NCBI RefSeq assembly: GCF_008000775.2
Contig: NZ_CP042905.2
Location: forward strand, 60,001 to 92,000
Direction: 5' to 3'
Source: Promethearchaeum syntrophicum
GTDB lineage: Archaea; Asgardarchaeota; Lokiarchaeia; Sigyniarchaeales; Promethearchaeaceae
Length of the DNA stretch: 32,000 bases
Shown: piece after piece, positions 7,487 through 32,000 of the stretch
How the letters are laid out: every line of letters begins with the position of its first letter
Numbering within the stretch: the first letter of the stretch is position 1
Notes under the pieces: model-generated
Seen by the model: only the letters and a program-made list of their open reading frames with translations
Databases searched by the model: none
Told to the model about the DNA's origin: nothing
Program-made: the position numbers and the translations under genes

Positions 7487-8233
7487 ATGAAATTATTTAA
7501 AATTACTAAAGATGAAATTACTGAAACTAAAAATGTCAATCCTGAGGATATTGTTCTGGTATTAAATGAGGAAATGAAAAAACTTTACGTTTATAAAGGA
7601 GAAAAAAGCACTACTTATAATGAATTGAAATCGGATGCATTATTTGAAAGAATTACCAATCAATTTTTCAATCCAAAAATTTTCTTGATTAAATCCCTAG
7701 ATGTTACGAAACAAGATCATCTTGAAATTGTTCAAGCAAAGAATTTTATAATGAGCCATTTCCCTAATATTAAGAAATTTTGGGTAATGTATTACTTGAA
7801 AAATATATTCTTACTTCATCAAATCCGTAAAAATATAAAAGTTTTCAAAAGTTATGATAAATCTCGAATTTGGCGCTTAAGATTATCAAATACAACAAAT
7901 ATATGGTATTTGAGTATTATAAATACGATGACCTTATTAATTTTGGTTATTGGTTTACTTTGGAAGATAATTTCTTTGGGAAATACAAGTTTTATTAATT
8001 TAGATACTAATACAGTTGATCCTATAGGATGGGCATATTGGTTTGAGAATCTACAGTTGTTTTTTATTATCAGTGGGATCATTCTCATTATTTTACTGGT
8101 TGTAAATCTAATATTTGTTCTTTTTCCAATGAAATTTCCAATATCTCCTTCAAAAATTAAATTAATGACTTCAAATTTGAAAGAATCGGTTCCACATGAC
8201 GTAATTGATAATAAAGAATTGGAAAAGGATTAA
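7487..8233 (+). CDS. Gelsolin/cofilin-like N-terminal domain fused to a two-TM membrane anchor
   Basis: The N-terminal ~95 aa (KLFKITKDEITE...PEDIVLVLNEEMKKLYVYKGEKSTTYNELKSDALFERITNQF..PKIFLIKS) fit the gelsolin-repeat pattern. Hydrophobic helices IWYLSIINTMTLLILVIGLLWKII and LQLFFIISGIILIILLVVNLIFVLF follow. Confidence 0.4.
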   Translation: MKLFKITKDEITETKNVNPEDIVLVLNEEMKKLYVYKGEKSTTYNELKSDALFERITNQFFNPKIFLIKSLDVTKQDHLEIVQAKNFIMSHFPNIKKFWVMYYLKNIFLLHQIRKNIKVFKSYDKSRIWRLRLSNTTNIWYLSIINTMTLLILVIGLLWKIISLGNTSFINLDTNTVDPIGWAYWFENLQLFFIISGIILIILLVVNLIFVLFPMKFPISPSKIKLMTSNLKESVPHDVIDNKELEKD

Positions 8234-11849: not shown

Positions 11850-14003
11850 ATGTCAATGAATAAACTTGCTCCTCAAGGATTAAAAAAAAAAAAAAGAGGA
11901 ATGAAAGTACCCTATTTAGGAAGAATTAGCTTATTTTGGTGTGATGATTGTAATGTCCCCCTATTAGATGACAATCATTGCGATATTTGTAAGAAAAAAG
12001 GTCATAAACTACCTGTTTCTCCACCAGGAGATATTAGACCAGCCTTTGCAGATGATTATATAACATTATGGAAGTGCGTTGATAAGCAATATGGAGAAGG
12101 TGTGGGAGAAACACTTCTTCCTACTTCCAAAATAGTACTCATTAGTAGAATTGGAGGTCTGGATAGAACCGAAGAGGTTATTGTGGATGGAAAAATTTTA
12201 GGAATACTCCAATTTAATATTCTACTAAATGATTTTGAATTCTTACCTAAATTGGAGGGTGGAATCCTTATCTACAAAATTCAAGAAGCGCTCACACTAT
12301 CTCCGAAAAAACATATAAATCTGAATAACGATGGAATTCCCTTTGTATTAAATGGCAAATCTATTTTAGTTCCAGGGGTAGAGAGTTTTTCAGAGGATAT
12401 TAATAAAGGTGATCATTGTTTAATTATCGCTAAAGATAATCAATCAGGAAAATCTCAATGTATTGCAATCGGTTTAGCACGGGATAGCTCTAGTAATTTT
12501 CATGAAATGTTTAAAAATAAATACGGTGAATTGGCAAAAAATAAGACTTATATCAAACAACCCCCCATAATCGAGATCAAACATATAGAAATTGACATAA
12601 ATCAGAAAAAATATAATTCTGATGATGATTTTGAGCAAATTAATAAGTCGATTTTAATAAGTTTAAAAAACGCGTATAAAGCAAATTATCAATATTTACA
12701 AAGAAGAATAAAAAAGTCATTAAAATTCATCAGAAAAACTATAGCAGACATTAAAAAACCCGTTGCAGTGGCATATTCTGGAGGAAAAGATAGTCTAGGA
12801 GTTTTACTATTAGTTTGGAAAGTTTTGGGTCCAAATTTTAAAATATTTTTTGCTGATACAGGATTGGAACTCCCCGAAGTTTTAGATAATGTTCAACAGA
12901 TTGCCAAAGATCTTAAAATGGAATCAAATTTAATTATTGAAAGTGCTAATGATATTTTTTGGAAATTAATTGAATCATTTGGACCTCCGGGACGAGATTA
13001 CAGATTCTGTTGCCATTCTTTAAAAGCCCAAAACATCATGAAAATAATAAATACCATCTATGATGGCGAAAAGGTACTTGTTTTTCTTGGAGCTCGACAA
13101 TATGAATCATTAAATAGGATGAGATCGAAACTCGTTTATGTTAATTCGTTTATACCACTTCAAATCGCAGCAACCCCAATTAAATCTTGGAATGCTCTAA
13201 CTTTATGGTTGTACATTCTATTTGAACCAGTGAAAGATTTTGAAAGCGAGAATTTATTGGAAGTATCTATAACACCACTTTATTATGAGGGTCATGAACG
13301 TCTTGGTTGCTATTTATGCCCGGCAAGTAATCTTTCAAATTTCAAATTACTTAAAACTTCACATCCCAAATTATATGAACGATGGTTTTCCTTTCTGGAT
13401 ACATACGCTCAGAAACACAATTTACCAAAAGAATGGGTTCAATATGGACTATGGCGTTTTAAACAATATACTCCACAATGGAAGAATTTTGCAGATTCAT
13501 TAAATTTATCAATTGATTATAATTCCCCAGATTCATCTGCACCGCTAAGTTTGAATATTGCAAAAGGATTTTCTCAAAATATTGATGCAGATTTTTCAAT
13601 CAAAGGAAAATTTTCGCACACGCTTAAAATAGACGATTTTCTAAGGTTTTTACCTGCGTTAACTAATGATTTCCACTGGGATGAGTTCAATGGAATAATT
13701 GAAATTAATTCTAAATTTAAAAACATACCTTACGCACTAAAAATATTCATTGATGGTTCGTTTAATCTTAATAGTAAAGAAAAAGAGTTTGATTTTTATA
13801 AATTGACTGAATTATTAACGGGAACGGTTTCGCGATCTCTATATTGCAACAGTTGTAAAACTTGTATCAATGTCTGCACGCAAAATGCCATCAGATTAGA
13901 AATGGGAAAAATTCTCATAGATAATGATAAGTGCATTAACTGTTATGATTGTATCACCCATTGTCCCTTTTTTCAACTGGCAAAAAAAGCATTAAAAACG
14001 TGA
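11850..14003 (+). CDS. Multidomain protein: N-terminal Zn-ribbon, a PUA-like region, a PAPS-reductase/PP-loop ATP pyrophosphatase domain and a C-terminal 2x[4Fe-4S] ferredoxin-like domain
   Basis: CDDCNVP...CDICKKKG ribbon. PP-loop VAVAYSGGKDSLGV. Downstream CYLCP. C-terminal CNSCKTCINVC and CINCYDCITHCP clusters. Confidence 0.7.
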   Translation: MSMNKLAPQGLKKKKRGMKVPYLGRISLFWCDDCNVPLLDDNHCDICKKKGHKLPVSPPGDIRPAFADDYITLWKCVDKQYGEGVGETLLPTSKIVLISRIGGLDRTEEVIVDGKILGILQFNILLNDFEFLPKLEGGILIYKIQEALTLSPKKHINLNNDGIPFVLNGKSILVPGVESFSEDINKGDHCLIIAKDNQSGKSQCIAIGLARDSSSNFHEMFKNKYGELAKNKTYIKQPPIIEIKHIEIDINQKKYNSDDDFEQINKSILISLKNAYKANYQYLQRRIKKSLKFIRKTIADIKKPVAVAYSGGKDSLGVLLLVWKVLGPNFKIFFADTGLELPEVLDNVQQIAKDLKMESNLIIESANDIFWKLIESFGPPGRDYRFCCHSLKAQNIMKIINTIYDGEKVLVFLGARQYESLNRMRSKLVYVNSFIPLQIAATPIKSWNALTLWLYILFEPVKDFESENLLEVSITPLYYEGHERLGCYLCPASNLSNFKLLKTSHPKLYERWFSFLDTYAQKHNLPKEWVQYGLWRFKQYTPQWKNFADSLNLSIDYNSPDSSAPLSLNIAKGFSQNIDADFSIKGKFSHTLKIDDFLRFLPALTNDFHWDEFNGIIEINSKFKNIPYALKIFIDGSFNLNSKEKEFDFYKLTELLTGTVSRSLYCNSCKTCINVCTQNAIRLEMGKILIDNDKCINCYDCITHCPFFQLAKKALKT

Positions 14004-14160
14004 ATATTTAGAAATCAATTTTTTTTCACATAATCGAAGCAGAAAAATCTCTATTTCTCTCTAAAAGGAACAAGAAAAAAAAATAATATAGGGAGCAAAC
14101 GTTTTATTTTAGTGTACCGAAAAAAATAATCTTATTATAACGGAAATGTGAGAACTTAAA

Positions 14161-14688
14161 TTGTCAACTAACTGGATATTCAAAACAATCGTTGCCGGTG
14201 CCGGCGGTGTAGGGAAGACTGCCTTAATTGAACGATATGTCTCAGGTGCTTTTCTAGAAGACCACAAGATGACGATAGGGGCAGCTTTTTCTGTTAAAGA
14301 TGTAAAATTAGATACTGGAGAAAATGTGCGCATGCAACTCTGGGACTTTGCAGGAGAAGAAAGATTTCGGTTTTTACTCGGAGATTATTGTAAAGGGGCT
14401 TCCGGTGCTTTTATTTGTTTCGATATAACGGATTATTCAACATTTGAACAAATACCTGAATGGTTAAGGATTATTCGTCAAAATGCGGGTATGATTCCTA
14501 TTATATTAGTAGGAAATAAATATGATTTGGATAACCATGAATTAGAATTAGCCACAGCAGATGAATACGCTGAAAGTGCCAAATGTTTGATGAATGTGTT
14601 TTGTTCTGCAAAGTTGGACTTAAATGTAGAACCTATGTTTGCTGCAATGGCAAAATGGTTAATATATTATGCAAATTTAGCGGATTAA
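14161..14688 (+). CDS. Rab/Ras-like small GTPase
   Basis: G1 GAGGVGKT, switch I TIG, G3 WDFAGEERF (compare WDTAGQERF), G4 GNKYD, G5 CSAK. TTG start. There is no C-terminal Cys lipidation motif (it ends YYANLAD). Confidence 0.85.
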   Translation: MSTNWIFKTIVAGAGGVGKTALIERYVSGAFLEDHKMTIGAAFSVKDVKLDTGENVRMQLWDFAGEERFRFLLGDYCKGASGAFICFDITDYSTFEQIPEWLRIIRQNAGMIPIILVGNKYDLDNHELELATADEYAESAKCLMNVFCSAKLDLNVEPMFAAMAKWLIYYANLAD

Positions 14689-14700
14689 ATGATTTTTTAT

Positions 14701-15087
14701 TTAACTTGATTTTTCTATATCTTTGATTGCATTTTTTACAGCTTCTAACGCTAATTTCATAAGAATTTCTTGTTTTAATTCCTTCTCTTTTATAAAAACC
14801 ATCGAAATAACAGGAGATTTAAGCATTTTACTTGAAGTTTTTCCAATCATATTTGAGAGGAGAGGATTTCTTAGACCAAACAAATTAAAAGGTGAACTGG
14901 ATGCTTGACCAATTCCTGTTGGAGGTCCACTCAAAGTTACATTTCCGATACCAAATTCCTTTTGATCTGTTACTAATAACAAATAACTTTTATGTAAAGA
15001 AATGAATGATGCATATACGTAAAATTCACCATAATTGGCTTGTCCTTCTCCACAAACGTTTACTGCTGGCATATAATTTACCTTCAT
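14701..15087 (-). CDS. Hypothetical protein, possibly a PAC3/PSMG3-like proteasome assembly chaperone fold
   Basis: 128 aa. The pattern YASFISLHKSYLLLVTDQKEFGIGNVTL...LFGLRNPLLSNMIGK...VISMVFIKEKELKQEILMKLALEAVKNAI is reminiscent, from memory, of PSMG3-type chaperones. Weak call. Confidence 0.25.
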   Translation of the reverse strand: MKVNYMPAVNVCGEGQANYGEFYVYASFISLHKSYLLLVTDQKEFGIGNVTLSGPPTGIGQASSSPFNLFGLRNPLLSNMIGKTSSKMLKSPVISMVFIKEKELKQEILMKLALEAVKNAIKDIEKSS

Positions 15088-15225
15088 ATAATTTGATTTA
15101 ATTGGATTTTATTTCCAATATTTGAGGTCATTATTTGAATGATAAATTTAAAGCTTAATTGTTTTTCGAAATTGAATTCAAAGCATGAGCGAAATTTCAA
15201 ATAAGATCCTAGTTTTACTTCCTCA

Positions 15226-15477
15226 ATGCCCGAAATAAAAGGTAAAACTTGGAAAGATTCATTAAAAACTAGAAAATATGAAGAACATAAACATTGTATA
15301 GTATGCGGTAAAGCAGTTCCAACAACCCAAGATTTTTGTAGCCAAGAATGTAAAGATAGTTATAAAAAAGCAGATAAAGATAAAGGTAAGAAAAATACTA
15401 TTCAAATTGTTGTTATGGTTGTATTAGTTATTGTAATGATTTTTGTTGTTCCAAGATTAATGACCCCTACTGGCTAA
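15226..15477 (+). CDS. Small Zn-ribbon protein (DUF2116-like) with a C-terminal TM helix
   Basis: HKHCIVCGKAVPTTQDFCSQEC, then a lysine-rich linker, then IQIVVMVVLVIVMIFVV. Confidence 0.6.
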   Translation: MPEIKGKTWKDSLKTRKYEEHKHCIVCGKAVPTTQDFCSQECKDSYKKADKDKGKKNTIQIVVMVVLVIVMIFVVPRLMTPTG

Positions 15478-15502
15478 ATAACAAAAGCTTAATTGATCTG
15501 AA

Positions 15503-15844
15503 ATGGATTCAGTTAAAAAGAAGACTAAAAACTATTATTTAACACGAATTTTTGGTAATTCAGTGAATGTTAAAATTATTGAAATCCTCCTAAAAAATGC
15601 CATTTCAGAGCAAAAATTGGGGAAAATTCTTTGGTACAACTATTCAAATATAGCAGATCAAGCGAAAGTTTCGAAAAGTAGTGGAAAAAGGATCTTAGAT
15701 GATTTAATTGAGCAGGGTTTTGTTGAAGAAAAAAAAATTGAAACGCATGCCCAATTTCCACCAAGGTTAGTGCGATTGCAAAGTTATCATCCTGCAATTA
15801 ATGAATTGCTATTTTTTTATAAAAAAGCGCGCGGATTTTTATAG
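15503..15844 (+). CDS. Winged-helix DNA-binding protein (putative transcriptional regulator)
   Basis: 113 aa. NVKIIEILLKN...YSNIADQAKVSKSSGKRILDDLIEQGFVEEKK is a typical wHTH recognition helix plus wing. Confidence 0.55.
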   Translation: MDSVKKKTKNYYLTRIFGNSVNVKIIEILLKNAISEQKLGKILWYNYSNIADQAKVSKSSGKRILDDLIEQGFVEEKKIETHAQFPPRLVRLQSYHPAINELLFFYKKARGFL

Positions 15845-15892
15845 AGAGATTATTATTTCTTTTTCCTTGAGATTTTGCTATAATATAATAAA

Positions 15893-16025
15893 TGCAGGGA
15901 GTGCGATTCGAACGCACGTATCCCTGTGGAACCGGATCTTGAGTCCGGCGCCGTTAGTCCTCCGAAAAGAAATAAGCGCCTATAATGGTTCTTTTTAGGG
16001 GTTGACCAGGCTTGGCTATCCCTGC
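15893..16025 (-). tRNA. tRNA-Leu(CAA), class II, interrupted by a 48-nt intron in the D-loop
   Basis: The reverse strand has acceptor GCAGGGA/TCCCTGC plus discriminator A. D arm is GCC-AAGCCTGGTCAAC-[48 nt]-GGC. Anticodon arm is CCGGA-CTCAAGA-TCCGG (anticodon CAA). Long variable arm is TTCCACAGGGATAC. T arm is GTGCG-TTCGAAT-CGCAC. The mature length would be 85 nt. Confidence 0.85.
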
Positions 16026-16084
16026 ATAATAAAAATGAAATTAATATTCAAAAAAAAGTTCGATTATTTTTAGGTTTTGCGGAT

Positions 16085-16801
16085 TTAATGATTTCGTAAA
16101 ATTTTCGTTCCTATATTACTTTTAAAGGCTTTTTCAACCAATAATTTACGTAAAGTGTCAAAATCTTCTCCATTACTTAAACGAACTTGAATATGACTTC
16201 GCTTCAAAATTTGAAGTGACACTGCGTCAAAAATTCTGTATTCTCCAGCTGCTGATTGTGAATTCCCGGTTTCACCGTAAATCACCTTTTCTAAATCGAT
16301 AATTGAGATTTCATCAAATTTTTTGGCTTTTGGATTTTTATGGGGATCCTTATCGTAAATGCCGTCAACATCTGTTAGAATAATCACATCAGTCGCGTGT
16401 AAAGATTCTGCAATTTCAAAAGTTACAGATGTTGTGCTTTGGCCCGGAATAAAACCTCCCGCTACTAAAATTCGATCCCATAGAGAAAATGCTCTCACTT
16501 CTTTAAGGGAAGTAATAGGATCTGGGTAAGCTTGATCTTTTAGAGCGGTAATCAATAGTCGCGCATTAAGTCGGGAAACTTCAATTCCAAATGTATCACA
16601 AAGAGATTCATCAGCACCAAGAAGTCTAGCGGATTTAATGAAATTTCGAGCCAATTTTCCTCCACCAATAATAATTGCCGCGATATCTTCTGAATCCTTA
16701 ATAATTTCTGCAAATTGAACTATCTTTTCATGTAAGATATTATAATCATTATCGAAAAGGAGAGACCCTCCAATTTTTAAAACCATCTTTTTTTTTGACA
16801 T
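16085..16801 (-). CDS. pyrH: Uridylate (UMP) kinase, archaeal type
   Basis: The amino-acid-kinase fold motifs KIGGSLL, IIGGGKLAR, RLNARLLITAL, VAGGFIPGQSTTSV and ILTDVDGIYDKDP..NP.AKK align closely with archaeal PyrH as I recall it. Confidence 0.85.
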   Translation of the reverse strand: MSKKKMVLKIGGSLLFDNDYNILHEKIVQFAEIIKDSEDIAAIIIGGGKLARNFIKSARLLGADESLCDTFGIEVSRLNARLLITALKDQAYPDPITSLKEVRAFSLWDRILVAGGFIPGQSTTSVTFEIAESLHATDVIILTDVDGIYDKDPHKNPKAKKFDEISIIDLEKVIYGETGNSQSAAGEYRIFDAVSLQILKRSHIQVRLSNGEDFDTLRKLLVEKAFKSNIGTKILRNH

Positions 16802-20026: not shown

Positions 20027-20781
20027 ATTTAATGAAACCTCTTGATTTCTCATTGCGCTCTTGTTCATATGATGATATCCCTGCGGTGATGGATGTTAAT
20101 GAGACTACTCTCCCCGAGAACTATCCATTATTCTTTTATGAGCAAATTCTTGAAAAATATCCTAAAACCTTTATCTTGGCATATAATAAGGATGATCCTA
20201 AACAAATAATTGGGTATATAATGTGGCGGGTAGAGAGAGGACTCTCTTCTTTCGGACTTGATCATGTTAAAAAAGCCCACTTGGTTTCATTAGCGGTGCT
20301 TCAAAATCATAGACGAAAAGGCATTGCAAATGAACTCCTTTTAAGGAGTATGGATTTAATTCGTGAATTTAAAATTTCAGAATATGTTTTAGAAGTCCGT
20401 GTTTCAAATTCAGGAGCAGTAAGATTATACAAGGAATTACATGATTTCAAAAAAATAAGGATTATCGGTCATTATTATCGCGATGGTGAAGATGCTTTTT
20501 ATATGGCAGCAATAAATAAGGAAAAAGAAACTAAGAAAATATCTAATCACGATTTAAGTGGTATGACAGACAAAGAAATTAAGCAGCATTTTTTAGACAA
20601 AAATCAAGGATATCTACTATATAACTGCCCAAATTGTAATTCTCTTCAAATAAAAGCTTTAAAATACTCTCTTGCTGGAACGGTAGATCCCGACAATAAA
20701 GAAACTTTAGATTGCGCTGATTGTAATGAAAAACTGGCTTTATATGATATCTCTCAAGGAAAATACAATTCATTTAAATAA
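20023..20781 (+). CDS. GNAT N-alpha-acetyltransferase (Ard1/RimI-like) with a C-terminal Zn-ribbon extension
   Basis: LAVLQNHRRKGIANELL (the Q/RxxGxA acetyl-CoA site) and YVLEVRVSN..A..LY. The C-terminal ~75 aa carry CPNCNS...CADCNEK. Confidence 0.75.
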   Translation: MNLMKPLDFSLRSCSYDDIPAVMDVNETTLPENYPLFFYEQILEKYPKTFILAYNKDDPKQIIGYIMWRVERGLSSFGLDHVKKAHLVSLAVLQNHRRKGIANELLLRSMDLIREFKISEYVLEVRVSNSGAVRLYKELHDFKKIRIIGHYYRDGEDAFYMAAINKEKETKKISNHDLSGMTDKEIKQHFLDKNQGYLLYNCPNCNSLQIKALKYSLAGTVDPDNKETLDCADCNEKLALYDISQGKYNSFK

Positions 20782-20812
20782 GGAAAAAAAATTTTTATAG
20801 TAGAATATTCGT

Positions 20813-21865
20813 TTAATCTTCTTTTAGAGGTCTTGGTTCTTGATATTCAATTAAAATGTCTTTTAAATATTTCCGTAATTTCGAAATAATCTCATTTATT
20901 TGATTTTCAGCTAAAATACTCTTATCTAACGAACTTATGATTGAAAAATAATAATTAGCATAATATGGATTGCCAGATTTTTTCTCTTCCATAACACTTT
21001 TCATTTGCTCTTCTGAGATTTTTAAATCATCGTAAAGATGAAATTGGTAGCACAAATTCATAAACTCCCCATCAACACCCCGTATGCTTGTAACATCTAA
21101 ATTTTCATCTTCTAATTGGCCAAAAAACTCCAAATGACCGCTGATTATTTTATCTATTTTGTTTTCAAGTTCATAATCTTTACTTTTTGGATTAAATGTC
21201 TCCGAAATCACGAGACCCGTATGATCGAATAAAATTGCTTGAGCGATTTCAGTTTTATCCCGATATTCAATAATTTCATCTTGAATTTCATCATATCCGA
21301 TTAAATAACGCCTTAATCCGTTAGAGATCATATGGATAATGGTATACAAATTATATATACTTGTTAAATAAAACTGAAAATTATATTCTGGAAAAGTTTT
21401 TCTCAATAAACTCTTAACCATTGCCCTTCGGGCAATATATTCATCAGGATTTTCTTTAATAAATTCATAATCGGTTTTACTAAAACAGATATAAATAGGA
21501 AGATCTTTAGCATAACTTACTTTTTTTAATACTCCCAGAACTTCTTCTAAATATGAAATACTCTCACTAAAACGCATTTCATCCTGTATATCAATTAAAT
21601 ATATCAATAAATCAATACTCTCAAAATACATCTTGCGCTGGATATACATCTTGCGAAATTTACTTTGACCCCCCATATCAAAGAAATTTAATCGAAGGTC
21701 TAAAAAATCTCTTCTATAATAATCGATGCGTAAAGTTGGCTTTAAATTATGAATCTCGTCTTCATATCCATACATTCGTTTAAAGCTGACAAGCATGCTG
21801 GTTTTTCCAGCATTATCTAAACCACTTAATACTACTTTAATTGGTTTTTTCGTTTTATTGCTCAT
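20813..21865 (-). CDS. Arf/Sar-type small GTPase domain fused to a C-terminal roadblock/longin-like domain of about 165 aa
   Basis: G1 SGLDNAGKTS (Arf-family GLDxAGKT), G3 DMGGQ, and a degenerate G4 SKTD. The C-terminal half reads IAQAILFDHTGLVISETF...ISGHLEFFGQL...VTSIRGVDGEFMNLCYQF, which is roadblock-like. Confidence 0.65.
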   Translation of the reverse strand: MSNKTKKPIKVVLSGLDNAGKTSMLVSFKRMYGYEDEIHNLKPTLRIDYYRRDFLDLRLNFFDMGGQSKFRKMYIQRKMYFESIDLLIYLIDIQDEMRFSESISYLEEVLGVLKKVSYAKDLPIYICFSKTDYEFIKENPDEYIARRAMVKSLLRKTFPEYNFQFYLTSIYNLYTIIHMISNGLRRYLIGYDEIQDEIIEYRDKTEIAQAILFDHTGLVISETFNPKSKDYELENKIDKIISGHLEFFGQLEDENLDVTSIRGVDGEFMNLCYQFHLYDDLKISEEQMKSVMEEKKSGNPYYANYYFSIISSLDKSILAENQINEIISKLRKYLKDILIEYQEPRPLKED

Positions 21866-22609
21866 TCTTTATTTCCTTGAATAATTTAACTACGATATTT
21901 CTTTCTTTTACTAGTTTAGCTAACTTTCCTTGAATTTTTTGAATTCCTTGCTTTCTTGTGTTCTTGCATTCCTTATTTTACATAATAAAATTTATTTCTT
22001 GTTAAGTTCTTTTGGTTTTACAGTACTTGATCTTTAAGATTTTAAAATATATTATATTTAAATATTAAAAATTTGATTATATGATGAGAATTAGTTAATG
22101 GGAAGTTTAAAAAAAAATACTCCTAAAAAAATAATTCACGTAATTATTCACGAAAAATTTAAATCTATTGCTGCAAAATCAACCCTTTTCTCCCCCCGTT
22201 CTTCTCCCTTTTAAAGTTTCCTCCTTTATGTCGATTAAATTTAAATATCTTATACACCTTAATTTCTTGGGTTGAGTTATCACATCTTGTGATCTCGATC
22301 TCACCCGCGTACCTTAAACGAATTCTTTGACCGAAAAGTGCCTGAAGAATCACCGTTAAGATACGAAGTGCAATAAATCATCACCTTGAATTCACGCAAT
22401 ACATTTGCATCAATCTTTTCGGATTGAGAAAACAAGACTAACCGATGATCTTTAGCGCAATATGAAAATTAGTTCAAAATTGATTTTCATAATACACTTG
22501 ACCCATGGCAAAGTCTTGCTTTTATCGTATTAGAGTCTTTAGACCCTGTTTAGTTATTATGGAAAAAAACAGACCAGACTATTAGAACCGAATTACTATT
22601 CTCTTTGTG

Positions 22610-22639: not shown

Positions 22640-22902
22640 TAAGAATTTTAATTTCGAGATAAAATGCAAATTGTACCAACATTGTCCATCCCATAATTAA
22701 ATTGATACATCTTATAAAATTTGTGTCAATGTATTGTGAGATAGACTAAAGTTTCAAATTTTTACTATACTATATATATCCAAACGTATGGATTATTTCT
22801 TCCAATATGCAATGTTCACGTGAAGAAAAGAATTTTGAAAATGTATGCTTGTTTTTCGTTATACAAATACCTAAAACATAACATAGTTAATTCGAAAAAT
22901 TT

Positions 22903-22966
22903 TAAATATTCTAATAATCAAACCTTAACCTTATCTTAGACATTTCGTCTCCGATAAGCTCTCAGG
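22903..22966 (+). other. 5' strand of the putative pre-23S processing helix
   Basis: 22903-22914 (TAAATATTCTAA) is perfectly complementary to 26223-26234. 22921-22930 and 22951-22965 are largely complementary to 26179-26207. Confidence 0.45.
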
Positions 22967-22987
22967 ACTCGTTCCTGATTAAGGTCC

Positions 22988-26085
<3,098 letters not shown>

Positions 26086-26178
26086 AATAGTCCGAGTGTT
26101 TGGGCTGGAAAAGGAACATGTGGGTCCTGGCTTTGAATCGGAATCATTGCAGAGCAGTCGAACGAGAGATCGTGCGAT

Positions 26179-26234
26179 CTGAGAGTATGCGGTGGTTAGG
26201 ATTTAGGAGTTGGGGTGAGATGTTAGAATATTTA
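26179..26234 (+). other. 3' strand of the putative pre-23S processing helix
   Basis: CTGAGAGTATGCGGTGGTTAGGATTT pairs with the 5' leader (CCGATAAGCTCTCAG, AACCTTAACC). TTAGAATATTTA pairs perfectly with 22903-22914. Confidence 0.45.
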
Positions 26235-26372
26235 GAGACAGACATCACATGAACGGAAACAGATTTGAAGAAATGGTAGGTTTGGAATAGGTAGGGGTAG
26301 TAAAAATGATATAAAAACGGAAAAATGTTGGTATAATTTGCAGGGCAGGGCTTTGTCGTGGGCTTTTAACTT
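26208..26372 (+). repeat. Direct repeat, copy A (about 165 nt), immediately 3' of the 23S processing helix and ending in an oligo-T run
   Basis: Aligns by eye with 30764-30917. The first 25 nt (AGTTGGGGTGAGATGTTAGAATATT) and the last 21 nt (TTTGTCGTGGGCTTTTAACTT) are identical. The middle is more diverged and has small indels. Confidence 0.85.
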
Positions 26373-26578
26373 TTTTCCCAATTTTCAAAAAATATTAATT
26401 CTTAATATCGGTATTTCCTATCTTAATTGATTCGATAATCCAGAGTTTATTATCCAACATGAAAAAAACTAAGGAGTAGAAAAAAAATCATCGACAATTT
26501 TTTCGTTGTTTTTCATTCGGTTACTAATACTAAAAAATAAAATTGTTTCCAAAAAAAGATATTTCTCGGTCAAAAAAA

Positions 26579-26593
26579 ATAAATTTGCAACTC
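26579..26593 (-). repeat. Inverted copy of the GAGTTGCAAATTTAT motif that heads the tandem array
   Basis: ATAAATTTGCAACTC is the exact reverse complement of 27611-27625. The two copies bracket the membrane-protein gene. Confidence 0.7.
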
Positions 26594-26783
26594 ACCATTG
26601 TTCATTTTGCTTGACTTGATTGGGAAAAATATAACGGTTCTCTTAATACTAAAAGATATTTCAACCACCAATAAACGATAACACAAACACTTAAACGATA
26701 ATACAACCACACCCCTATTTCTTAAGTGGTTGGCTTGTTGGTGAGAATCTAATTTCTTCAACATATATAATTGAAAAAAAAAA

Positions 26784-27290
26784 TTAGTAATATTGGGAAA
26801 TATGCCATTCTCTCTTTGCACCAAATCGATATAAGAAATATCCGATAAAGGGATAGATTGCAACAAAAAAAAGGGGGAAAATCGCATATACTAACCATAC
26901 TGGAAGTAAATATGGATTTATGGGTGCCCAAGGGGCAATAATTAGTAAATATCCTACAAACAAACAAATAGGGACAGTTATAACAAATCCAACAACACCC
27001 ACTAACATAATTTTATTCATTAAGATAATTGTGTTTATGCTTTTGATGTTTTGAAAACCGTGCATTAGGATTATTCCTAAGGGAGGAACAATGGTCATGA
27101 AAATTGCGAACCTCAAGCTCATTATGTTGAAGTAATATAGAACCCATATAAAAAGTGTATTAGTAATTATCGCCCCGAGATTTATCCAAACCCAATTTTT
27201 TTTGCAGGTTTCCCAAAAATTCTTAATAATTTCTTTAAAATTCTTTTCTTCTGAATCATCTTCTTCCGAAATTTTTTCCTTAATATTCAT
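26784..27290 (-). CDS. Small integral membrane protein (about 4 TM helices) with an acidic N-terminus
   Basis: 168 aa. After MNIKEKISEEDDSEEK there are four long hydrophobic stretches (for example WINLGAIITNTLFIWVLYYF and LVGVVGFVITVPICLFVGYLLII). No family recognised. Confidence 0.55.
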   Translation of the reverse strand: MNIKEKISEEDDSEEKNFKEIIKNFWETCKKNWVWINLGAIITNTLFIWVLYYFNIMSLRFAIFMTIVPPLGIILMHGFQNIKSINTIILMNKIMLVGVVGFVITVPICLFVGYLLIIAPWAPINPYLLPVWLVYAIFPLFFVAIYPFIGYFLYRFGAKREWHISQYY

Positions 27291-27610
27291 TCAATCATCT
27301 CTTTGCGAATATATTATTGAAAATTAACCCATCACATGCCAAGCAAGTAAAGTACTAATATCTAGATTGAATAAATCCATGTTAATAAAATAGATACAAT
27401 TCTGATTATATCTTTCTCTATCTCTTGAAATTCAATCCGAAACAATACTTTTTTGGGGTTTATTAATTTTTTTTGTGTTTATTTGAGAATTTTCTAGGTT
27501 TCAAATGACATCCCACTAACAGGGACTTCCATTAAAAATCGCAGATATAAAATGCGAGAAAAAAAATAAAAAATTTTTTTTACCCCCCCATATCGCCCAT
27601 ACAAAAAAGA

Positions 27611-28022
27611 GAGTTGCAAATTTATCTTTGTTTTAGCTCTTTTTTCGGACCTTTTTTAAGCATAGATCCACATATATCTTTGTTTCTGGACCTTTTTCAG
27701 ACAAAGTTGCAGAATTATCTTTGCTACTGGACCTTTTACCGGACCTTTTTCAGACAAAGTTGCAGAATTATCTTTGCTACTGGACCTTTTACCGGACCTT
27801 TTTCAGACAAAGTTGCAGAATTATCTTTGCTACTGGACCTTTTACCGGACCTTTTTCAGACAAAGTCGCAAATTTATCTTTGTTTGGGAGCATTTTGAAG
27901 CAAAGTTGCAGAATTATCTTAGCTAAAACATCATTAATGTCAAAAGTATCGATTGTTCCATCTTCGTTTAAATGACAAAAATCGCATTTTAGAGAAAAAC
28001 AAGAGTTGCAAAATTATCTTTT
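27611..28022 (+). repeat. Tandem repeat array: three perfect 53-bp units flanked by degenerate units, all built on GTTGCA(G/A)A(A/T)TTATCTT
   Basis: Units at 27706-27758, 27759-27811 and 27812-27864 are identical (GTTGCAGAATTATCTTTGCTACTGGACCTTTTACCGGACCTTTTTCAGACAAA). Motif copies also start at 27613, 27865, 27905 and 28005, with a degenerate unit at about 27666. Confidence 0.9.
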
Positions 28023-28165
28023 GGTATCTGTTACCATATGAAGATATGTGGTTTTTAAATGAAGTAGAAAAGGAGGTTTACAAGGAAAAAATAATATGTC
28101 CGATGAAGAAATGAGGATAGATTAGATCTTATAAAAAAAATTTTACTTTTTTTTTTACGACATTT

Positions 28166-30286
28166 TTATTTCATAATTTTGAGCCCATTTTTAAGCGAGA
28201 TGGAGAGCCTTTTATTGATTTTAGCGAGAATGGGATCGTTGGGGGGCAATTTTAGTTCGAGAATTTCTCTTTCACGGTGTCCTGCTTCCCATCCTAATCT
28301 TTCTTCTTCATCGCTGGTTAGGGATTTGAGATTGTCAGAATATTGCTGCGCGAGTTGGGAGGGGGATTTCCTATAATAGTTATAGAGTTCTTCTGGATTT
28401 CCATGTTGGTAATGTTCGATTAGATTTTTCCCTTTTGGGGTTAGATTGTCGATATTTAAAGCTTCTTCTTTAATTCCTTCCCAAACGGTGTAATCAAAGA
28501 TATTTTTTGGGATATTAGAGAGTGAGCGAAGGGGCAGACCCCAAATGGATAGGATTTGGAGTTTTTGTAATGATGCGATAAAATCAGGGATAATTTCGAA
28601 TTGATTTCCCCCTCCGATATCAATTTCCGTGAGATTCTTTAAGTTTTTCATGGATTCGGGCATGAATTGAAAATTATTGCCATAACACACGAGTCCTTCA
28701 ATGTTTGTTAGGCTTCCGAGCCACTTTGGGAGGATGGAGAGATTTGTATTTGTGAAAAGGAGACTTGTGAGATTTTTAAGATATTTGATGCTTGGGGGGA
28801 GTCGGTTGATCTTACATTCTTCTATATGAAGGGTTTCGAGCTTGGAAAATTTTTGAAATTTAATTTTTTTGATTTCGGATTCATTAAGTCGTGATAGATA
28901 GATTTCTTTAAGTTGTGTGAGTTTATTGATGGATGGCGGAATTTTCGTAGGAATAGGATTTATAATTGATATGGATGTCAAAGATGTGAGTGTGTCGATG
29001 TTTTCTGGGATAGGGAGCTTTGTTAAATTTAGTTGTGTGATTTGACCATGAGAGATTTTAATACTATTTGTGGTGCCTGCTTGTAATGAGAAGGATTTGT
29101 CATATTTTTCTTCAAGTTTTCTAATAAAATCTGCTTGATTTTTTAAGATAGGTTTATTTTTATATTTGGAGTATTGTTTTTGAATTTCTCTCTCTTTTTG
29201 AATTCTTCTTTCGATTGTATTAATAAATTTAATGATAAGATTTGGGGAAGCGCTTTTATGATATTGGTGGAAGTTTTTTTTAACATTGAAAGTACTAAAT
29301 TCAGCTAAATTTTGTAATTTTGAACGAAATAACTGGAGTTCTGATGTGCTGGCTTCCCACAATAATCGATTCCGATCTTCACCGGTTAGTGAGTTAAAAT
29401 CGTTAAGGAATTGTTTTGCGAGTTTTTGAGGGGATTTTTGGTAATATTGGAGTAATCCTTTAATGTCGCCGCTATTGAATAGTTTAGAACCTGTAGGAGA
29501 TAGAAAGAGATCTGAAGAGTCATTTTTATAGCTTTTTATGAATTCAGCGATAAATTTTTGAGGAATATTGGAGAGTGATCGGAGAGGGTTGTCGAAAAAA
29601 GATAGTTTTATTAAATTGGGGAATATAGAGATGAAATCTGGTATGGATTCAAACCTATTTTTAAAAATAACTAATTTCGAAAGATCAGTTAGATTTTTGA
29701 GAGTTTTCGGTAATGTGGAAATGGAACATTCAGAAATAGTAAGTTCATTAAGTGATAAAAGTTTTCCGAGTCTTTTTGGAATTGTTTTAATAGGGTTACC
29801 ATTAAGTGAGAGTTTTTTCAGATTTGGAATCTTTTCAATGTTCATCGGTAATTCGGAGAGACCACAATATGTGATATAAAGAATTTGAAGTTTCGAGAAG
29901 TGTTGGAATGGGAGATCGATTGATTTAAGTTTTATAGAATCAATATGAATCCTGATAAGGTTTGTGAGTTTGCTAAACGATGGCGGTAATTCGGAGATAT
30001 TTTGATTTTCAATGGTTAAATACTCAAGATTGGTCAAATTTCCGATGTTTTCGGGTAACTTATCGATTCTGTTAAAATTATTTTTTAAGTGTCCTCTAAT
30101 ACCTAGTGCAACAATGTTATAATCAACAACTCTATAACTCGCAGGTTTTCCTATGAGATGTTCAAGTTCGATAAGGACTTCTACATTGCTTTTAACCAAT
30201 GCTTGCCCGTTGTAGTTCATGAGTTCTTCGGATTGGTTTCGATGAATTTTAAGGACAGCGTTCTTTTCTTTGTTCTCCATTCTCAT
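28166..30286 (-). CDS. Leucine-rich-repeat protein with an internally duplicated architecture: two copies of an LRR block followed by a ~90-aa helical module
   Basis: 706 aa. Units of 22-24 aa of the form LxxLxxLxLxxNxLxxLPxxIxxL occur in two blocks. Each block is followed by PLRSLSNIP...YY(Q/R)KSP(Q/S)xLAxQ(F/Y)...SLT(G/S)(E/D)(D/E)xxRLxWEA. Confidence 0.85.
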   Translation of the reverse strand: MRMENKEKNAVLKIHRNQSEELMNYNGQALVKSNVEVLIELEHLIGKPASYRVVDYNIVALGIRGHLKNNFNRIDKLPENIGNLTNLEYLTIENQNISELPPSFSKLTNLIRIHIDSIKLKSIDLPFQHFSKLQILYITYCGLSELPMNIEKIPNLKKLSLNGNPIKTIPKRLGKLLSLNELTISECSISTLPKTLKNLTDLSKLVIFKNRFESIPDFISIFPNLIKLSFFDNPLRSLSNIPQKFIAEFIKSYKNDSSDLFLSPTGSKLFNSGDIKGLLQYYQKSPQKLAKQFLNDFNSLTGEDRNRLLWEASTSELQLFRSKLQNLAEFSTFNVKKNFHQYHKSASPNLIIKFINTIERRIQKEREIQKQYSKYKNKPILKNQADFIRKLEEKYDKSFSLQAGTTNSIKISHGQITQLNLTKLPIPENIDTLTSLTSISIINPIPTKIPPSINKLTQLKEIYLSRLNESEIKKIKFQKFSKLETLHIEECKINRLPPSIKYLKNLTSLLFTNTNLSILPKWLGSLTNIEGLVCYGNNFQFMPESMKNLKNLTEIDIGGGNQFEIIPDFIASLQKLQILSIWGLPLRSLSNIPKNIFDYTVWEGIKEEALNIDNLTPKGKNLIEHYQHGNPEELYNYYRKSPSQLAQQYSDNLKSLTSDEEERLGWEAGHREREILELKLPPNDPILAKINKRLSISLKNGLKIMK

Positions 30287-30326
30287 TTCACGAATTGGTA
30301 TGTATTTTTGGACCTTTTACTTTATC

Positions 30327-30335
30327 ATTATATAA
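30327..30335 (-). promoter_or_regulatory. Candidate TATA box of the 706-aa LRR gene
   Basis: The reverse strand reads TTATATAAT about 40-50 nt upstream of the ATG at 30286. The same TTATATAAT lies at the equivalent distance upstream of the second LRR gene. Confidence 0.4.
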
Positions 30336-30415
30336 TATATGGGATTCGGGTTAAAATATTTAACGGATCGACAATTTATCGTGTGAAAATTGTGCGTCCC
30401 AGTTAATCGGATGTT

Positions 30416-30442
30416 TTTACCTTAGGTAACTAAAAGTAAAAA
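30416..30442 (-). promoter_or_regulatory. Conserved 27-nt upstream element shared by both LRR genes (copy upstream of the 706-aa gene)
   Basis: TTTACCTTAGGTAACTAAAAGTAAAAA matches the reverse complement of 31004-31030 at 25 of 27 positions. Both copies sit 110-156 nt upstream of their gene in the same relative orientation. Confidence 0.6.
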
Positions 30443-30503
30443 AAGAACGAAAAAAATAAAAATATCGAAAAAATAAAAAAAATTATAGAAAAAAAAAGAC
30501 GGA

Positions 30504-30800
30504 TTATGGTGTATATTCGTGATTGCTGTTTCCTTGAACGAAATTAGTTCCATATTCAGAAATAAATATACTATTTACTGAAAAAAAGTTGCCACCGTTT
30601 TCATATTTAGATCCCAAGTGCCCGACCATTAGATAATGGAGCATTGCGTTTACAATGAAAACGCCTGAGAGTATCCTATGTGTCTCAATGTCATAAAGTT
30701 CCAAGTTGGATTCATAAGCGTTTTCGTAATAGTACCAGTATCCTTGTGTGTCGGCAACAAATAAGTTGGGGTGAGATGTTAGAATATTGACAGACATCAC
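30504..30800 (-). CDS. Questionable small ORF (98 aa) whose first ~12 codons lie inside direct-repeat copy B
   Basis: This is an ORF-track entry only. The sequence is Tyr/Asn-rich with no recognised motif, and the start codon is supplied by the repeat. Confidence 0.25.
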   Translation of the reverse strand: MMSVNILTSHPNLFVADTQGYWYYYENAYESNLELYDIETHRILSGVFIVNAMLHYLMVGHLGSKYENGGNFFSVNSIFISEYGTNFVQGNSNHEYTP

Positions 30801-30917
30801 ATGAACAGAAACAGATTTGAAGAAATTGTAGGTTTGATATAGATAGGGGTAGTAGAAAGATATTGAAGTAATGTTGGTACGGTTTGTAGAGCAAGGCTTT
30901 GTCGTGGGCTTTTAACT
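30764..30917 (+). repeat. Direct repeat, copy B (about 154 nt), between the two divergent LRR genes
   Basis: See copy A. It has the same sharp boundaries, and the sequence outside both ends is unrelated between the two copies. Confidence 0.85.
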
Positions 30918-31003
30918 TCTTTATTTAATTTAAATATTTATATTGTTAATTTGAGTAATATTTGTTAAATTTTAATTACAGTCTTTTTTCTCTCTACATT
31001 TAA

Positions 31004-31030
31004 TTTTTACTTTCAGTGACCTAAGGTAAA
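31004..31030 (+). promoter_or_regulatory. Conserved 27-nt upstream element (copy upstream of the second LRR gene)
   Basis: TTTTTACTTTCAGTGACCTAAGGTAAA. A further shared block lies downstream: ATAAATCGCCGATTCGTTAAAT here, against ATAAATTGTCGATCCGTTAAAT on the reverse strand upstream of the first gene. Confidence 0.6.
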
Positions 31031-31093
31031 TCTTTTTGATCGCCAAATTTTTTAGCAATAAATCGCCGATTCGTTAAATTTAATTACTCAAAC

Positions 31094-31103
31094 TTTATAT
31101 AAT
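31094..31103 (+). promoter_or_regulatory. Candidate TATA box of the second LRR gene
   Basis: TTTATATAAT lies about 40 nt upstream of the ATG at 31140. Confidence 0.4.
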
Positions 31104-31139
31104 ATACGGAGACAAAAATTAGTAAATGGGATTCAAGGA

Positions 31140-32000
31140 ATGAAAAAACGCACTAAAAAATCTTCTGTAAAAACAACTAGACATCAAAGAAATCCCGTAA
31201 AATACCCAGGTATAGTAATAAAAAATGGACATTTGACGATTCTCCCCGAGAATATCAAAAATCTGAAATTTCTCGAAATTATGAATTTAAGTAATAAACG
31301 GTTAACATCACTCCCAGAAAATATCGGAGATCTAAGATCTCTAAAAAATTTAGATTTATCAGATAATCAGTTAACAAAACTCCCGGAAAGCATCGGAAAT
31401 CTAACATCTCTAAAAATTTTAGATTTATCAGATAACCAGATAACAAAACTCCCGGAAAGCATCGGAAATCTAACATCTCTAAAAATTTTAGATTTATCAG
31501 ATAACCAGATAACAAAACTCCCAGAAAGCATTGGAAATTTGAAATCACTTGAAAAGTTGAATTTACGAGGTTTTCAGATACCGACACTTCCGTATGAGAT
31601 TGAAAATCTGAAAATATCCGAAATGATAAATTTAAGACACAAATGGTTAATATCGCTCCCAGAAAGCATCGGAAATCTAACATCTCTAAAAAATTTAGAT
31701 TTATCTTATAATCAATTAACCAAACTCCCAGAAAGCATCGGAAACCTGAAATCACTTGAAAAGTTGAATTTATATGCTAATCGAATAAAAACACTACCGG
31801 AAAGTATTGGAAATCTATCTTCTCTAAGAGATTTAAATTTATCACTCTTATTTTTTAATTCACTACCGAAAAGCTTAGGAAATTTGAAATTACTCGAAAA
31901 TTTGGAATTATCATCTAATGTATTACCTTTTCTTCCAGAGGAGATCGGAAATCTAACATCTTTACAAAGTTTAGATTTAACATCTAATCAGTTAACAACC
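31140..32000 (+). CDS. Leucine-rich-repeat protein, 5' part (continues past the window end); absent from the ORF track
   Basis: Manual translation from the ATG at 31140 gives MKKRTKKSSVKTTRHQRNPVKYPGIVIKNGHLTILPENIKNLKFLEIMNLSNKRLTSLPENIGDLRSLKNLDLSDNQLTKLPESIGNLTSLKILDLSDNQITKLPESIGNL... There are at least 11 consecutive 23-aa LRR units, open to position 32000. Confidence 0.85.
   Translation, partial: MKKRTKKSSVKTTRHQRNPVKYPGIVIKNGHLTILPENIKNLKFLEIMNLSNKRLTSLPENIGDLRSLKNLDLSDNQLTKLPESIGNLTSLKILDLSDNQITKLPESIGNLTSLKILDLSDNQITKLPESIGNLKSLEKLNLRGFQIPTLPYEIENLKISEMINLRHKWLISLPESIGNLTSLKNLDLSYNQLTKLPESIGNLKSLEKLNLYANRIKTLPESIGNLSSLRDLNLSLLFFNSLPKSLGNLKLLENLELSSNVLPFLPEEIGNLTSLQSLDLTSNQLTT
31381..31518 (+). 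repeat. Perfect tandem duplication of one 69-nt (23-codon) LRR unit
   Basis: 31381-31449 and 31450-31518 are identical (TCCCGGAAAGCATCGGAAATCTAACATCTCTAAAAATTTTAGATTTATCAGATAACCAGATAACAAAAC). Confidence 0.9.

Follow-up and report, generated by a model that had tools for sequence, protein, structure and literature searches.

The direct repeat downstream of the 23S rRNA gene of Promethearchaeum syntrophicum belongs to a family of exactly five copies of the distal 23S trailer, all on the strand of the 23S gene and at most 23 kb downstream of it, and the copies may best be explained as relics of illegitimate and unequal recombination that mark junctions in a hotspot of gene turnover, an explanation to which we would give about an even chance. 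The host is an Asgard archaeon with a closed 4.3-Mb chromosome (31% GC, referred to as G000) that contains a single 23S gene. Within the window, i.e. the 32,000-nt stretch analyzed here, an initial annotation had noticed two copies, A and B, and had proposed that an insertion or segmental duplication copied the rRNA trailer. A duplication of trailer-derived DNA is indeed present, but A and B have the appearance of old recombination by-products and not of a scar left by a single 4.5-kb insertion.

Copies of the trailer and the 23S processing stem

The features on which this view is based are the following (window positions unless genome positions are given; all on the plus strand):

22901-22966: 23S leader, 5' strand of the long processing stem, cofolded with the trailer; outer helix 22901-22929
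22982-26107: single 23S rRNA gene, archaeal type (Rfam RF02540, 2507 bits)
26176-26207: trailer, 3' strand of the inner stem (alignments; blastn of genome 86176-86385 against 105854-106060)
26208-26372: copy A, genome start 86208 (alignment and genome-wide search)
26208-26236: 5' extension of A, 3' strand of the outer processing helix, also present in B and C
26237-26385: core of A, G/T-rich tail with three T-runs followed by ~10 conserved nt
30764-30917: copy B, genome start 90764 (alignment and genome-wide search)
30764-30788: 5' extension of B, identical to the helix strand of A, without leader partner
30789-30924: core of B (nhmmer, 164 bits), in the clade of solo copies with D as nearest relative
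genome start 105887: copy C (blastn and nhmmer of the genome)
genome start 108188: copy E (blastn and nhmmer of the genome)
genome start 109299: copy D (blastn and nhmmer of the genome)

Copies A and B start 4,556 nt apart, as described initially, and align over 165 nt with 84% identity (E 3.7e-45 in the whole-genome search). The alignment also bears out that their termini are identical (25 nt at the start and ~29 nt at the end), that their middles have diverged (two indels of 4 and 6 nt and ~20 substitutions) and that the sequences flanking them are unrelated. Both copies terminate in T-runs (TTTTAACTTTTTT), which had been noticed for A, and the T-runs ending the core of A are presumed to be an archaeal terminator. 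The notion of a bracketing pair was accurate insofar as both copies are real but has to be extended by C, E and D. No further copies were found in 4.32 Mb by nhmmer with filters off, and a generic dispersed repeat is excluded by this genome-wide count of five local and co-oriented copies. In the five-copy alignment, a core of ~130 nt that starts at 26237 in A, at the end of the outer processing helix, is common to all copies; it is the tail of the 23S trailer, unstructured and rich in G and T, with oligo-T runs at its end. Identity among the copies is 77-87% with the 3' 75 nt as the best-conserved part, and every copy has kept the terminator end and lost its 5' side to a differing extent. A micro-ORF or a minus-strand ORF within the element was rejected, because stops in A and D and 1-nt indels in C and E break the frames and leave no ORF conserved across the copies. 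The element is also not a divergent 5S or other known RNA, since the true 5S gene is located at 2.82 Mb and Rfam gave no match.

The 23S gene, which scored 2507 bits with the archaeal and 1798 bits with the bacterial Rfam model, is the only LSU match in the genome, with 16S and 5S genes located elsewhere and unlinked. A second 23S gene upstream of copy C was considered but rejected on account of this single match and of the leader, for which no repetition was found elsewhere in the genome. Positions 22901-22929 of the leader pair with about 26208-26236 of the trailer to form the outer helix, in which ~26 of 29 leader positions are paired and three leader bases are unpaired. In the sister species (G001), one C-G pair is replaced by U-A in a compensatory change and one U.G pair by C-G, and this covariation supports the predicted leader-trailer pairing. 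Copy A had been thought to begin where the processing helix ends; it instead starts inside the helix, whose outer 3' strand makes up its first 29 nt and has also been retained by B and C. Because the leader strand is not duplicated, the solo copies cannot form the helix. For the inner stem, the MFE model gave alternative pairings and a canonical bulge-helix-bulge motif could not be placed.

The origin of the repeat in the 23S trailer is evident from those copies that extend furthest in the 5' direction. The inner-stem strand is also kept by copy C (genome 105854-105890) and by copy c91_1 of a further congener (G002), and copy c85_1 of G001 has retained the last ~115 nt of the 23S gene together with the whole trailer. 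The 5' ends are nested and the 3' end is common, with C and c91_1 reaching to the inner stem, A, B and C to the outer helix and c85_1 into the 23S gene. At the 3' side, the copies share a boundary that varies by only a few nt and lies shortly after the last T-run, also in c85_1, which is recent, and homology among the copies runs ~5-10 nt past this T-run.

The interval between A and B and the surrounding island

Between and beyond the two copies, the window contains the following features:

26784-27290, minus strand: gene for a multi-pass membrane protein of 168 aa (from its translation)
27611-28022: 53-bp tandem array (repeat families D2-D4) in the species-specific left half of the A-B interval
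28166-30286, minus strand: gene for an LRR protein of 706 aa (Pfam LRR_14, LRR_4 and LRR_8)
30507-30762, minus strand: remnant of a giant gene, last ~105 codons (tblastn 49% over 106 aa, E 2e-25)
31140-32000, plus strand: second LRR gene, a divergent paralogue (Pfam)

These features do not bear out the idea that the 4.5-kb segment is a single insert. Its right 2.6 kb, containing the LRR gene and a small ORF, has a syntenic counterpart downstream of the 23S gene in G001, where an orthologue of the 706-aa LRR protein (G001_C41 20407-22440, 50.6% amino acid identity) is found in conserved order and orientation. The small ORF had been regarded as doubtful and is indeed not an intact gene, but the remnant of a giant gene that encodes more than 3,998 aa in G001. 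The DNA of the remnant matches G001_C41 22854-22933 at 82.5%, homology ends at the edge of copy B, and the 5' edge of B is an illegitimate junction within the remnant. Homology to the giant-gene protein that extends 25 nt into B was treated as a chance match, because DNA identity is ~54% in this stretch and the stretch is identical to A. The GC and tetranucleotide content of the A-B segment is ordinary. No match to the 53-bp array was found in G001, and neither Pfam nor PHROG contained a match for the 168-aa membrane protein. A pseudogenised paralogue of the latter is located directly upstream of copy E (genome 107706-108191, 74% identical, with an in-frame stop), and a homologue with 73% amino acid identity upstream of a G002 copy (G002_C91). 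The modules upstream of the two LRR genes are in inverted orientation to each other, visible as inverted repeat I1 (30416-30462 and 30984-31030).

The island to which the copies belong is ~26 kb long and consists of accessory, defence and toxin-antitoxin genes; it extends from the 23S gene to conserved DNA at ~112.5 kb and differs in content in G001 and G002, both outer flanks being syntenic. The DNA between the copies contains PRTase_III-A-like, SoFic, ATPase-Mrr nuclease, GNAT and TPR genes and a DUF6290 pair. Genes between the copies lie in both orientations; the copies themselves are strictly co-oriented in three genomes and are separated by several ~1-kb intervals holding one gene. Copy D adjoins a 140-nt duplicate of part of a racemase gene, and copies in G002 flank a block that is found at 3.39 Mb in G000. 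Three clades were resolved in the tree of the copies. With 96/98 support, one of them joins B, C, D and E to solo copies from G001 and G002, which places the duplications before the species split. Copy A groups with copies of the 23S-trailer type and B is nearest to D within the solo-copy clade of three species, which leaves an origin of A and B in one insertion unsupported. Background DNA identity between G000 and G001 is 82-86%, intergenic DNA included; identity among the copies does not exceed this value and neutral decay suffices to explain it.

The initial annotation had suggested to look in relatives for the presence or absence of the segment and had named an arrangement shared by all of them, in combination with uniform composition, as evidence against its reading. 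In three fragmented congeners and two short metagenome contigs, neither an empty site nor a single-copy variant was found; the arrangement differs between relatives, but composition is normal. When public collections were searched with a 35-nt degenerate pattern, matches were obtained only in the same congeners and two short metagenome contigs, and exact-protein look-ups for strain variants yielded only short contigs from one run (DRR199588). Solo trailer copies are absent from the closed genomes of two other genera (G012 and G013), and the idea of a general family trait was discarded. Contig G002_C126 was considered as 23S contig of G002, but contains merely a ~60-nt 23S-like fragment. This foreign-type fragment of a 23S 3' end sits within a 2.2-kb insert, and another one, at 4111015-4111061 of G000, borders a CARF/helicase/PLD/UDG cluster. 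Searches with Pfam on the island ORFs and with profiles on the genome did not detect an integrase or resolvase in or near the island; the closest PF00589 matches are at 2.5-2.6 Mb and PF00239 has zero matches in the genome. In the literature, we found nothing on trailer repeats or integration at rRNA flanks in Asgard archaea.

Proposed recombination relics and alternative explanations

The copies constitute a genus-specific family, low in copy number, whose members are paralogues of the distal 23S rRNA trailer; a copy comprises the outer processing-helix strand, the unstructured G/T-rich tail and the oligo-T terminator, or some of these parts. In the explanation as relics, repeated duplication at the level of DNA, probably by recombination, would have generated them from the 3' flank of the single 23S gene. 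The copies, all in 23S orientation, now punctuate the ~26-kb island and mark points at which gene order is broken between species. The copies presumably have no sequence-specific function of their own; they are likely to act as substrates for homologous recombination in the hotspot and, at most, as portable oligo-T terminators. Several observations count against mere relics. A 3' boundary common to duplications of clearly differing age is not predicted by random segmental duplication and hints at a mechanistic determinant, for example the end of a transcript or a site of breakage or recombination. Co-orientation and one-gene intervals look more orderly than the outcome of random rearrangement, and two solo copies without a pairing partner match A at 25/25 and 24/25 positions of the outer-helix strand.

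An alternative offered initially was a small RNA gene present twice. Such an RNA would have to be unstructured, G/U-rich and ~110-130 nt long, acting by base-pairing or protein binding, with the product of A being the tail of the 23S precursor that is left after stem processing, and the other copies being transcribed from A/T-rich boxes of their own. Oligo-T ends on the same strand, A/T-rich TATA-like sequence just upstream of the core in every copy, the conservation of the 3' 75 nt and a placement relative to neighbouring genes that is inconsistent, as for an independent unit, would fit this idea, as would the strong strand asymmetry (GC skew of +0.5 to +0.62, at about the 99th percentile or above among 130-nt windows, with +0.5 for the core of A). 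However, TATA-like strings are expected by chance at 31% GC, conservation does not exceed the neutral background and the 23S-adjacent copy of G001 has lost ~27 nt of the core. On the plus strand, all copies had positive MFE z-scores (+0.7 to +2.2, +1.7 for the core of A) and are less foldable than shuffled sequences; on the minus strand, z-scores were near zero or positive and the copies no more foldable than shuffles. The RNAalifold consensus reached only -5.5 kcal/mol with five and -4.8 with ten copies, with 0 compensatory pairs, no Rfam match was obtained over 26000-31200 even at E <= 10, and no C/D-box or H/ACA motifs were seen by eye in the element. By these predictions, the element appears to lack both the covariation and the curated-model match of a structured non-coding RNA, and we regard a family of unstructured small RNAs as quite unlikely. 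Highly improbable are retro-copies, for which 3' fragments of the 23S precursor or trailer would have been reverse-transcribed from the terminator end and inserted. They would account for the common 3' end at the presumed transcript end and the variable 5' ends, reaching into the 23S gene in G001, and the genome contains one RVT_1-type reverse transcriptase ORF (2.87 Mb), but unlike dispersed retro-copies the copies are co-oriented and within 23 kb of the source gene, their homology extends beyond the last T-run, and neither A-tails nor target duplications were seen in the alignments. An element of the MITE or IS type was rejected, as inverted termini are absent and the only five copies are local and co-oriented.

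Alternatively, the copies could be att-like sites of islands or cassettes that integrated serially at the 3' end or trailer of the 23S gene by means of a trans-acting recombinase. Each integration would bring the 3' part of the target, thereby restoring stem and terminator and pushing the older copy downstream, and the array would be a record of successive integrations. Islands that target tRNA genes likewise restore the 3' part of their target and displace the older copy. In favor of this scenario, the 3' boundary is fixed at the end of a functional transcription unit and the 5' boundaries vary, co-oriented copies pile up beside a stable-RNA gene, and the accessory DNA between them is species-variable with several one-gene intervals. 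Moreover, solo copies form a clade of their own in three species, as the lineage of an element-borne site would, and the foreign-type 23S 3'-end fragments in G000 and G002_C126 adjoin accessory genes elsewhere. We nevertheless consider integration unlikely: the fully sequenced 26-kb island lacks a tyrosine or serine recombinase, neighbouring repeats have no identical crossover core in common, the left flank of B is a truncated resident gene rather than the end of an element, and the LRR gene of the A-B interval is syntenic in G001. Composition is native, genes between the copies run in both directions and no empty site was found.

If the copies are only recombination relics, they are useful for annotation, in that they explain the doubtful ORF and correct the limits of the 23S processing stem, and they mark a ~26-kb hotspot of turnover and defence beside the sole 23S gene of an Asgard archaeon from a cultured lineage. 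If they are instead active as recombination sites or as small RNAs, they would represent the first element of such a kind derived from an rRNA trailer in archaea and would provide a handle on the gain and loss of accessory genes in Asgard archaea.

Comparison with known systems

The islands at tRNA and tmRNA 3' ends, flanked by attL and attR, resemble the family in having co-oriented partial 3' copies with a shared 3' boundary downstream of the gene, separated by accessory, defence and toxin-antitoxin genes that vary between relatives. Here, repeats of the 3' part of the target are present, but the target would be the 23S trailer, the island is free of an integrase, the repeats are 77-87% identical instead of forming a near-identical pair, the edge of at least one copy was formed by an illegitimate junction within a resident gene and no empty site was found. 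Integron arrays with attI and attC are similar in that short repeats of ~130 nt follow a fixed anchor in one orientation, often with one gene per interval, whereas the copies described here have no intI-like gene and no inverted symmetry or hairpin potential, enclose genes in both orientations and originate from an rRNA trailer. With considerable reservation, since we hold it to be rather improbable, the trailer element might be the recombination site of an undescribed, integron-like platform for gene capture in Asgard archaea. At co-oriented sites of ~130 nt, anchored at the 3' end of the 23S transcription unit, such a platform would gain, exchange and lose short cassettes that often consist of one gene (membrane protein, TPR, GNAT, toxin-antitoxin and Fic defence genes). 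It would do so without an integron integrase or hairpin sites, either by an enzyme encoded elsewhere or in events following breaks at the rRNA terminator.

Lost copies of rRNA genes or duplications of local segments would likewise leave remains with a retained 3' end and variable 5' truncation, and the 2-3 copies of 23S in other genera of the family fit this likeness. However, four solo copies in 23 kb would require many tandem 23S units, no fragments of the 23S body are left in G000, and the closed genomes of the two other genera are devoid of solo trailer copies. From the archaeal rRNA processing stems, i.e. leader-trailer helices cut by the splicing endonuclease, the family differs in that the repeated core lies outside the stem and the solo copies have no leader partner, whereas copy A, in its first 29 nt, and the 32 nt preceding it correspond to the 3' strand of such a stem around the 23S gene, with support from covariation.

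Repeats of the 23S rRNA trailer

A whole-genome search of Promethearchaeum syntrophicum (G000; single contig of 4,324,194 bp, 31% GC, the window being G000:C1:60001-92000) recovered copy A (26208-26372) and copy B (30764-30917) as direct repeats with 84% identity over 165 nt (E 3.7e-45). The initial annotation had described identical termini, diverged middles, unrelated outer flanks and a closing T-run, and this description holds: the first 25 and last approximately 29 nt are identical, the middles differ by indels of 4 nt and 6 nt and about 20 substitutions, the DNA outside the copies is unrelated and both copies close with T-runs. Blastn and nhmmer profile searches with filters off detected exactly five copies in G000, all on the plus strand, and no further copy (next best match E > 4).

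The 23S rRNA gene and the five copies of its trailer in G000
Window 22982-26107: 23S rRNA gene (2507 bits with the archaeal LSU model, 1798 with the bacterial model)
Genome 86208, + strand: copy A
Genome 90764, + strand: copy B
Genome 105887, + strand: copy C
Genome 108188, + strand: copy E
Genome 109299, + strand: copy D

This 23S gene is the only LSU gene of G000; the 16S gene lies on the opposite strand at 151434-152928 and the 5S gene at 2.82 Mb. In the leader-trailer cofold, an outer helix is formed by leader 22901-22929 and trailer 26209-26236, with approximately 26 of 29 leader positions paired, and the leader and 23S-adjacent trailer of the congener G001 show compensatory differences from G000 at paired positions (one C-G to U-A, one U.G to C-G). 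Since copy A opens with the trailer side of this helix (29 nt), the earlier placement of the start of copy A at the end of the processing helix was off by 29 nt; the helix ends where the core of the family begins. The 5' ends of the copies are nested: all five contain the core (about 130 nt), which runs from ACATCACATGAAC through the T-runs and about 10 nt beyond them, a further 25-30 nt are common to A, B and C, and beyond that 37 nt more are common to A and C. This additional stretch (26176-26207 in A) supplies the 3' side of the inner stem. As the leader strand is present a single time in G000, stem formation by the solo copies is impossible. The plus strand of the core is G/T-rich (GC skew +0.5 to +0.62, at about the 99th percentile of 130-nt windows or above). 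Every candidate ORF in the element is broken across the copies by stops and 1-nt indels.

In a maximum-likelihood tree of 13 copies, G001 c41_1, c85_1 and c85_2 formed one group (100/100), copy A and two metagenome copies a second, and B, C, D, E, G001 c41_2 and c91_1 and c3_1 of the congener G002 a clade of solo copies (96/98), in which the partner of B was D (87/82) and not A.

The interval between copies A and B

The right 2.6 kb of the interval (genome 88151-90762) aligns to DNA downstream of the 23S gene in G001 and holds an LRR gene and the last approximately 105 codons of a giant gene. The small ORF at 30504-30800, earlier regarded as doubtful, is this remnant of the giant gene (49% over 106 aa, E 2e-25). 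As the match to the giant gene breaks off at genome 90762, one base ahead of copy B, we infer that the 5' edge of B is an illegitimate junction in former coding DNA. In G001, nothing at the corresponding place matches the left 1.8 kb, which comprises the membrane protein gene and the 53-bp array. The composition of the interval is unremarkable (GC 32.1%; tetranucleotide distance 0.192, about the 90th percentile of 4.4-kb windows), as are GC and tetranucleotide composition of the whole island. Together, the right-part synteny, the junction at B, the missing left part in G001 and the ordinary composition contradict the proposal that the interval was inserted as one discrete 4.5-kb unit.

Two further features were observed here. 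A 47-nt inverted repeat (window 30416-30462 and 30984-31030, 77% complementary) lies in the upstream modules of two divergent LRR paralogues, with only the giant-gene remnant and copy B between its arms. A 105-aa ORF (26570-26887, minus strand) shares its sequence in part with the 3' end of the membrane protein gene; as neither Pfam nor PHROG gave a match, it is probably spurious.

A variable island downstream of the 23S gene

Genes of the island in G000
Two LRR genes
Zinc-finger protein and ATPase-Mrr nuclease pair
PRTase-CE protein (PADLOC model PRTase_III-A, E 3e-48)
HD protein
LVIVD propeller protein
DUF6290 protein and, after it, a 163-aa protein
Fic protein (PADLOC models SoFic and PDC-S04)

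Recombinases of the tyrosine or serine type were found neither in the island nor near it, and one reverse transcriptase is encoded in G000 at 2.87 Mb. The genes for the antitoxin-like DUF6290 protein and the 163-aa protein (genome 108437-109289; L007 16437-17289) fill the entire 1-kb E-D interval and likely form a toxin-antitoxin pair. The window's gene for a 168-aa membrane protein has a paralogue immediately upstream of copy E (G000:C1:107706-108191; L007 15634-16170), in which an in-frame stop lies near the N-terminus; a G002 homologue is likewise located just upstream of a copy, with partial copies on both sides. The 140 nt right after copy D (109429-109568) repeat an interior stretch of the Asp/Glu racemase gene (110869-111009) with 81% identity, which leaves the Fic gene flanked by partial racemase sequences in direct orientation. 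The G002 gene between its copy and the racemase gene is of Fic type as well, but a different one (42% aa) that points the other way.

Among 41 genomes searched (the window's own and 40 relatives), the element was confined to the same genus, from which genomes are deposited as Promethearchaeum sp. MAGs; in two closed genomes from other genera, the trailers of the 23S genes lack the element and have not multiplied into solo copies. On G001 contig C41, which is syntenic with G000 74-86 kb, a full 23S gene (13533-16653) precedes copy c41_1, a TPR/zinc-ribbon gene and copy c41_2; further on lie two small genes, the LRR orthologue (50.6% aa identity to the window's gene) and a giant ORF exceeding 3,998 aa. 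Contig C85 shows inverted synteny with G000 112.5-128.7 kb. Beside this conserved flank the order is partial copy, GNAT gene, copy c85_2, 289-aa gene, copy c85_1. The last of these takes in approximately 115 nt of the 23S 3' end and matches the genuine 23S end and trailer at about 95% identity. In G002, two copies flank a block with homologues at 3.39 Mb in G000. Because the arrangements differ between the three genomes, the region from the 23S gene to about 112.5 kb is, as read from these alignments, an island of variable content, with co-oriented copies interspersed through it in each species.

Related fragments were observed elsewhere. In G013, from another genus of the family, a solo fragment (G013:C1:2600048-2600098; L012 1470-1560) with 84% identity to the Promethearchaeum-type trailer stem strand is intergenic, beside CoA-transferase genes and far from the 23S genes. 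One 23S gene of G013 (L019:1-3040) ends at 1508 and, after a 286-nt spacer, a 16S gene starts at 1795 on the same strand, an order opposite to the usual one; no 16S follows the second 23S gene (L025). A 47-nt 23S 3'-end fragment in G000 (G000:C1:4111015-4111061; L043 ~8015-8061), closer to the 23S of G013 and G012 (a third genus) than to that of G000 itself, borders a CARF/SF1 helicase/PLD nuclease cluster, where it comes directly after a UDG-like gene. G002 contig C126 (L036, reverse complement ~600-2790) has a 2.2-kb insert absent at the orthologous G000 2062230-2062309, flanked on both sides by an unrelated direct repeat of 141 nt (97% identity) and containing a RelE-like fragment, a foreign-type 23S 3'-end fragment of about 60 nt and a membrane protein ORF.

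Origin and possible function of the copies

The reading that we hold most likely, with about even confidence, is that the repeats arose long ago as paralogues of the 23S trailer at the DNA level, that they mark junctions in a hotspot of gene turnover and that they may serve as recombination substrates. Retro-copying would fit the pattern of copy ends, but clashes with the clustering of the copies and appears very improbable. That the core encodes a putative small RNA is doubtful as well, as it lacks structural support: the core contains no compensatory pairs (RNAalifold -5.5 kcal/mol for five copies, -4.8 for ten), its minus strand gave no RNAalifold structure, single-sequence MFE z-scores were +0.7 to +2.2 on the plus strand (less stable than shuffles) and -0.4 to +2.0 on the minus strand, and no Rfam family matched the copies even at E <= 10. 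Identity between copies (77-87%) is no higher than in ordinary G000/G001 DNA (82-86%, intergenic DNA included), so that conservation alone is no argument for function.

Several regularities of these trailer paralogues are not well explained by random rearrangement. The 3' homology limit of every copy, old or recent, lies within a few nt past the last T-run, whereas the 5' ends spread over about 350 nt; the copies are co-oriented in all three genomes (G000, G001, G002); several inter-copy intervals, about 1-2 kb in length, hold just one gene or one gene pair; and short 23S 3'-end fragments resembling the 23S of another genus adjoin accessory genes elsewhere in G000 and G002. The common 3' limit, co-orientation, single-gene intervals and foreign-type fragments keep alive the reading that the copies act as sites comparable to att sites or to those of gene cassettes, which we regard as rather unlikely overall, and a more novel form of such a system as somewhat less likely again.
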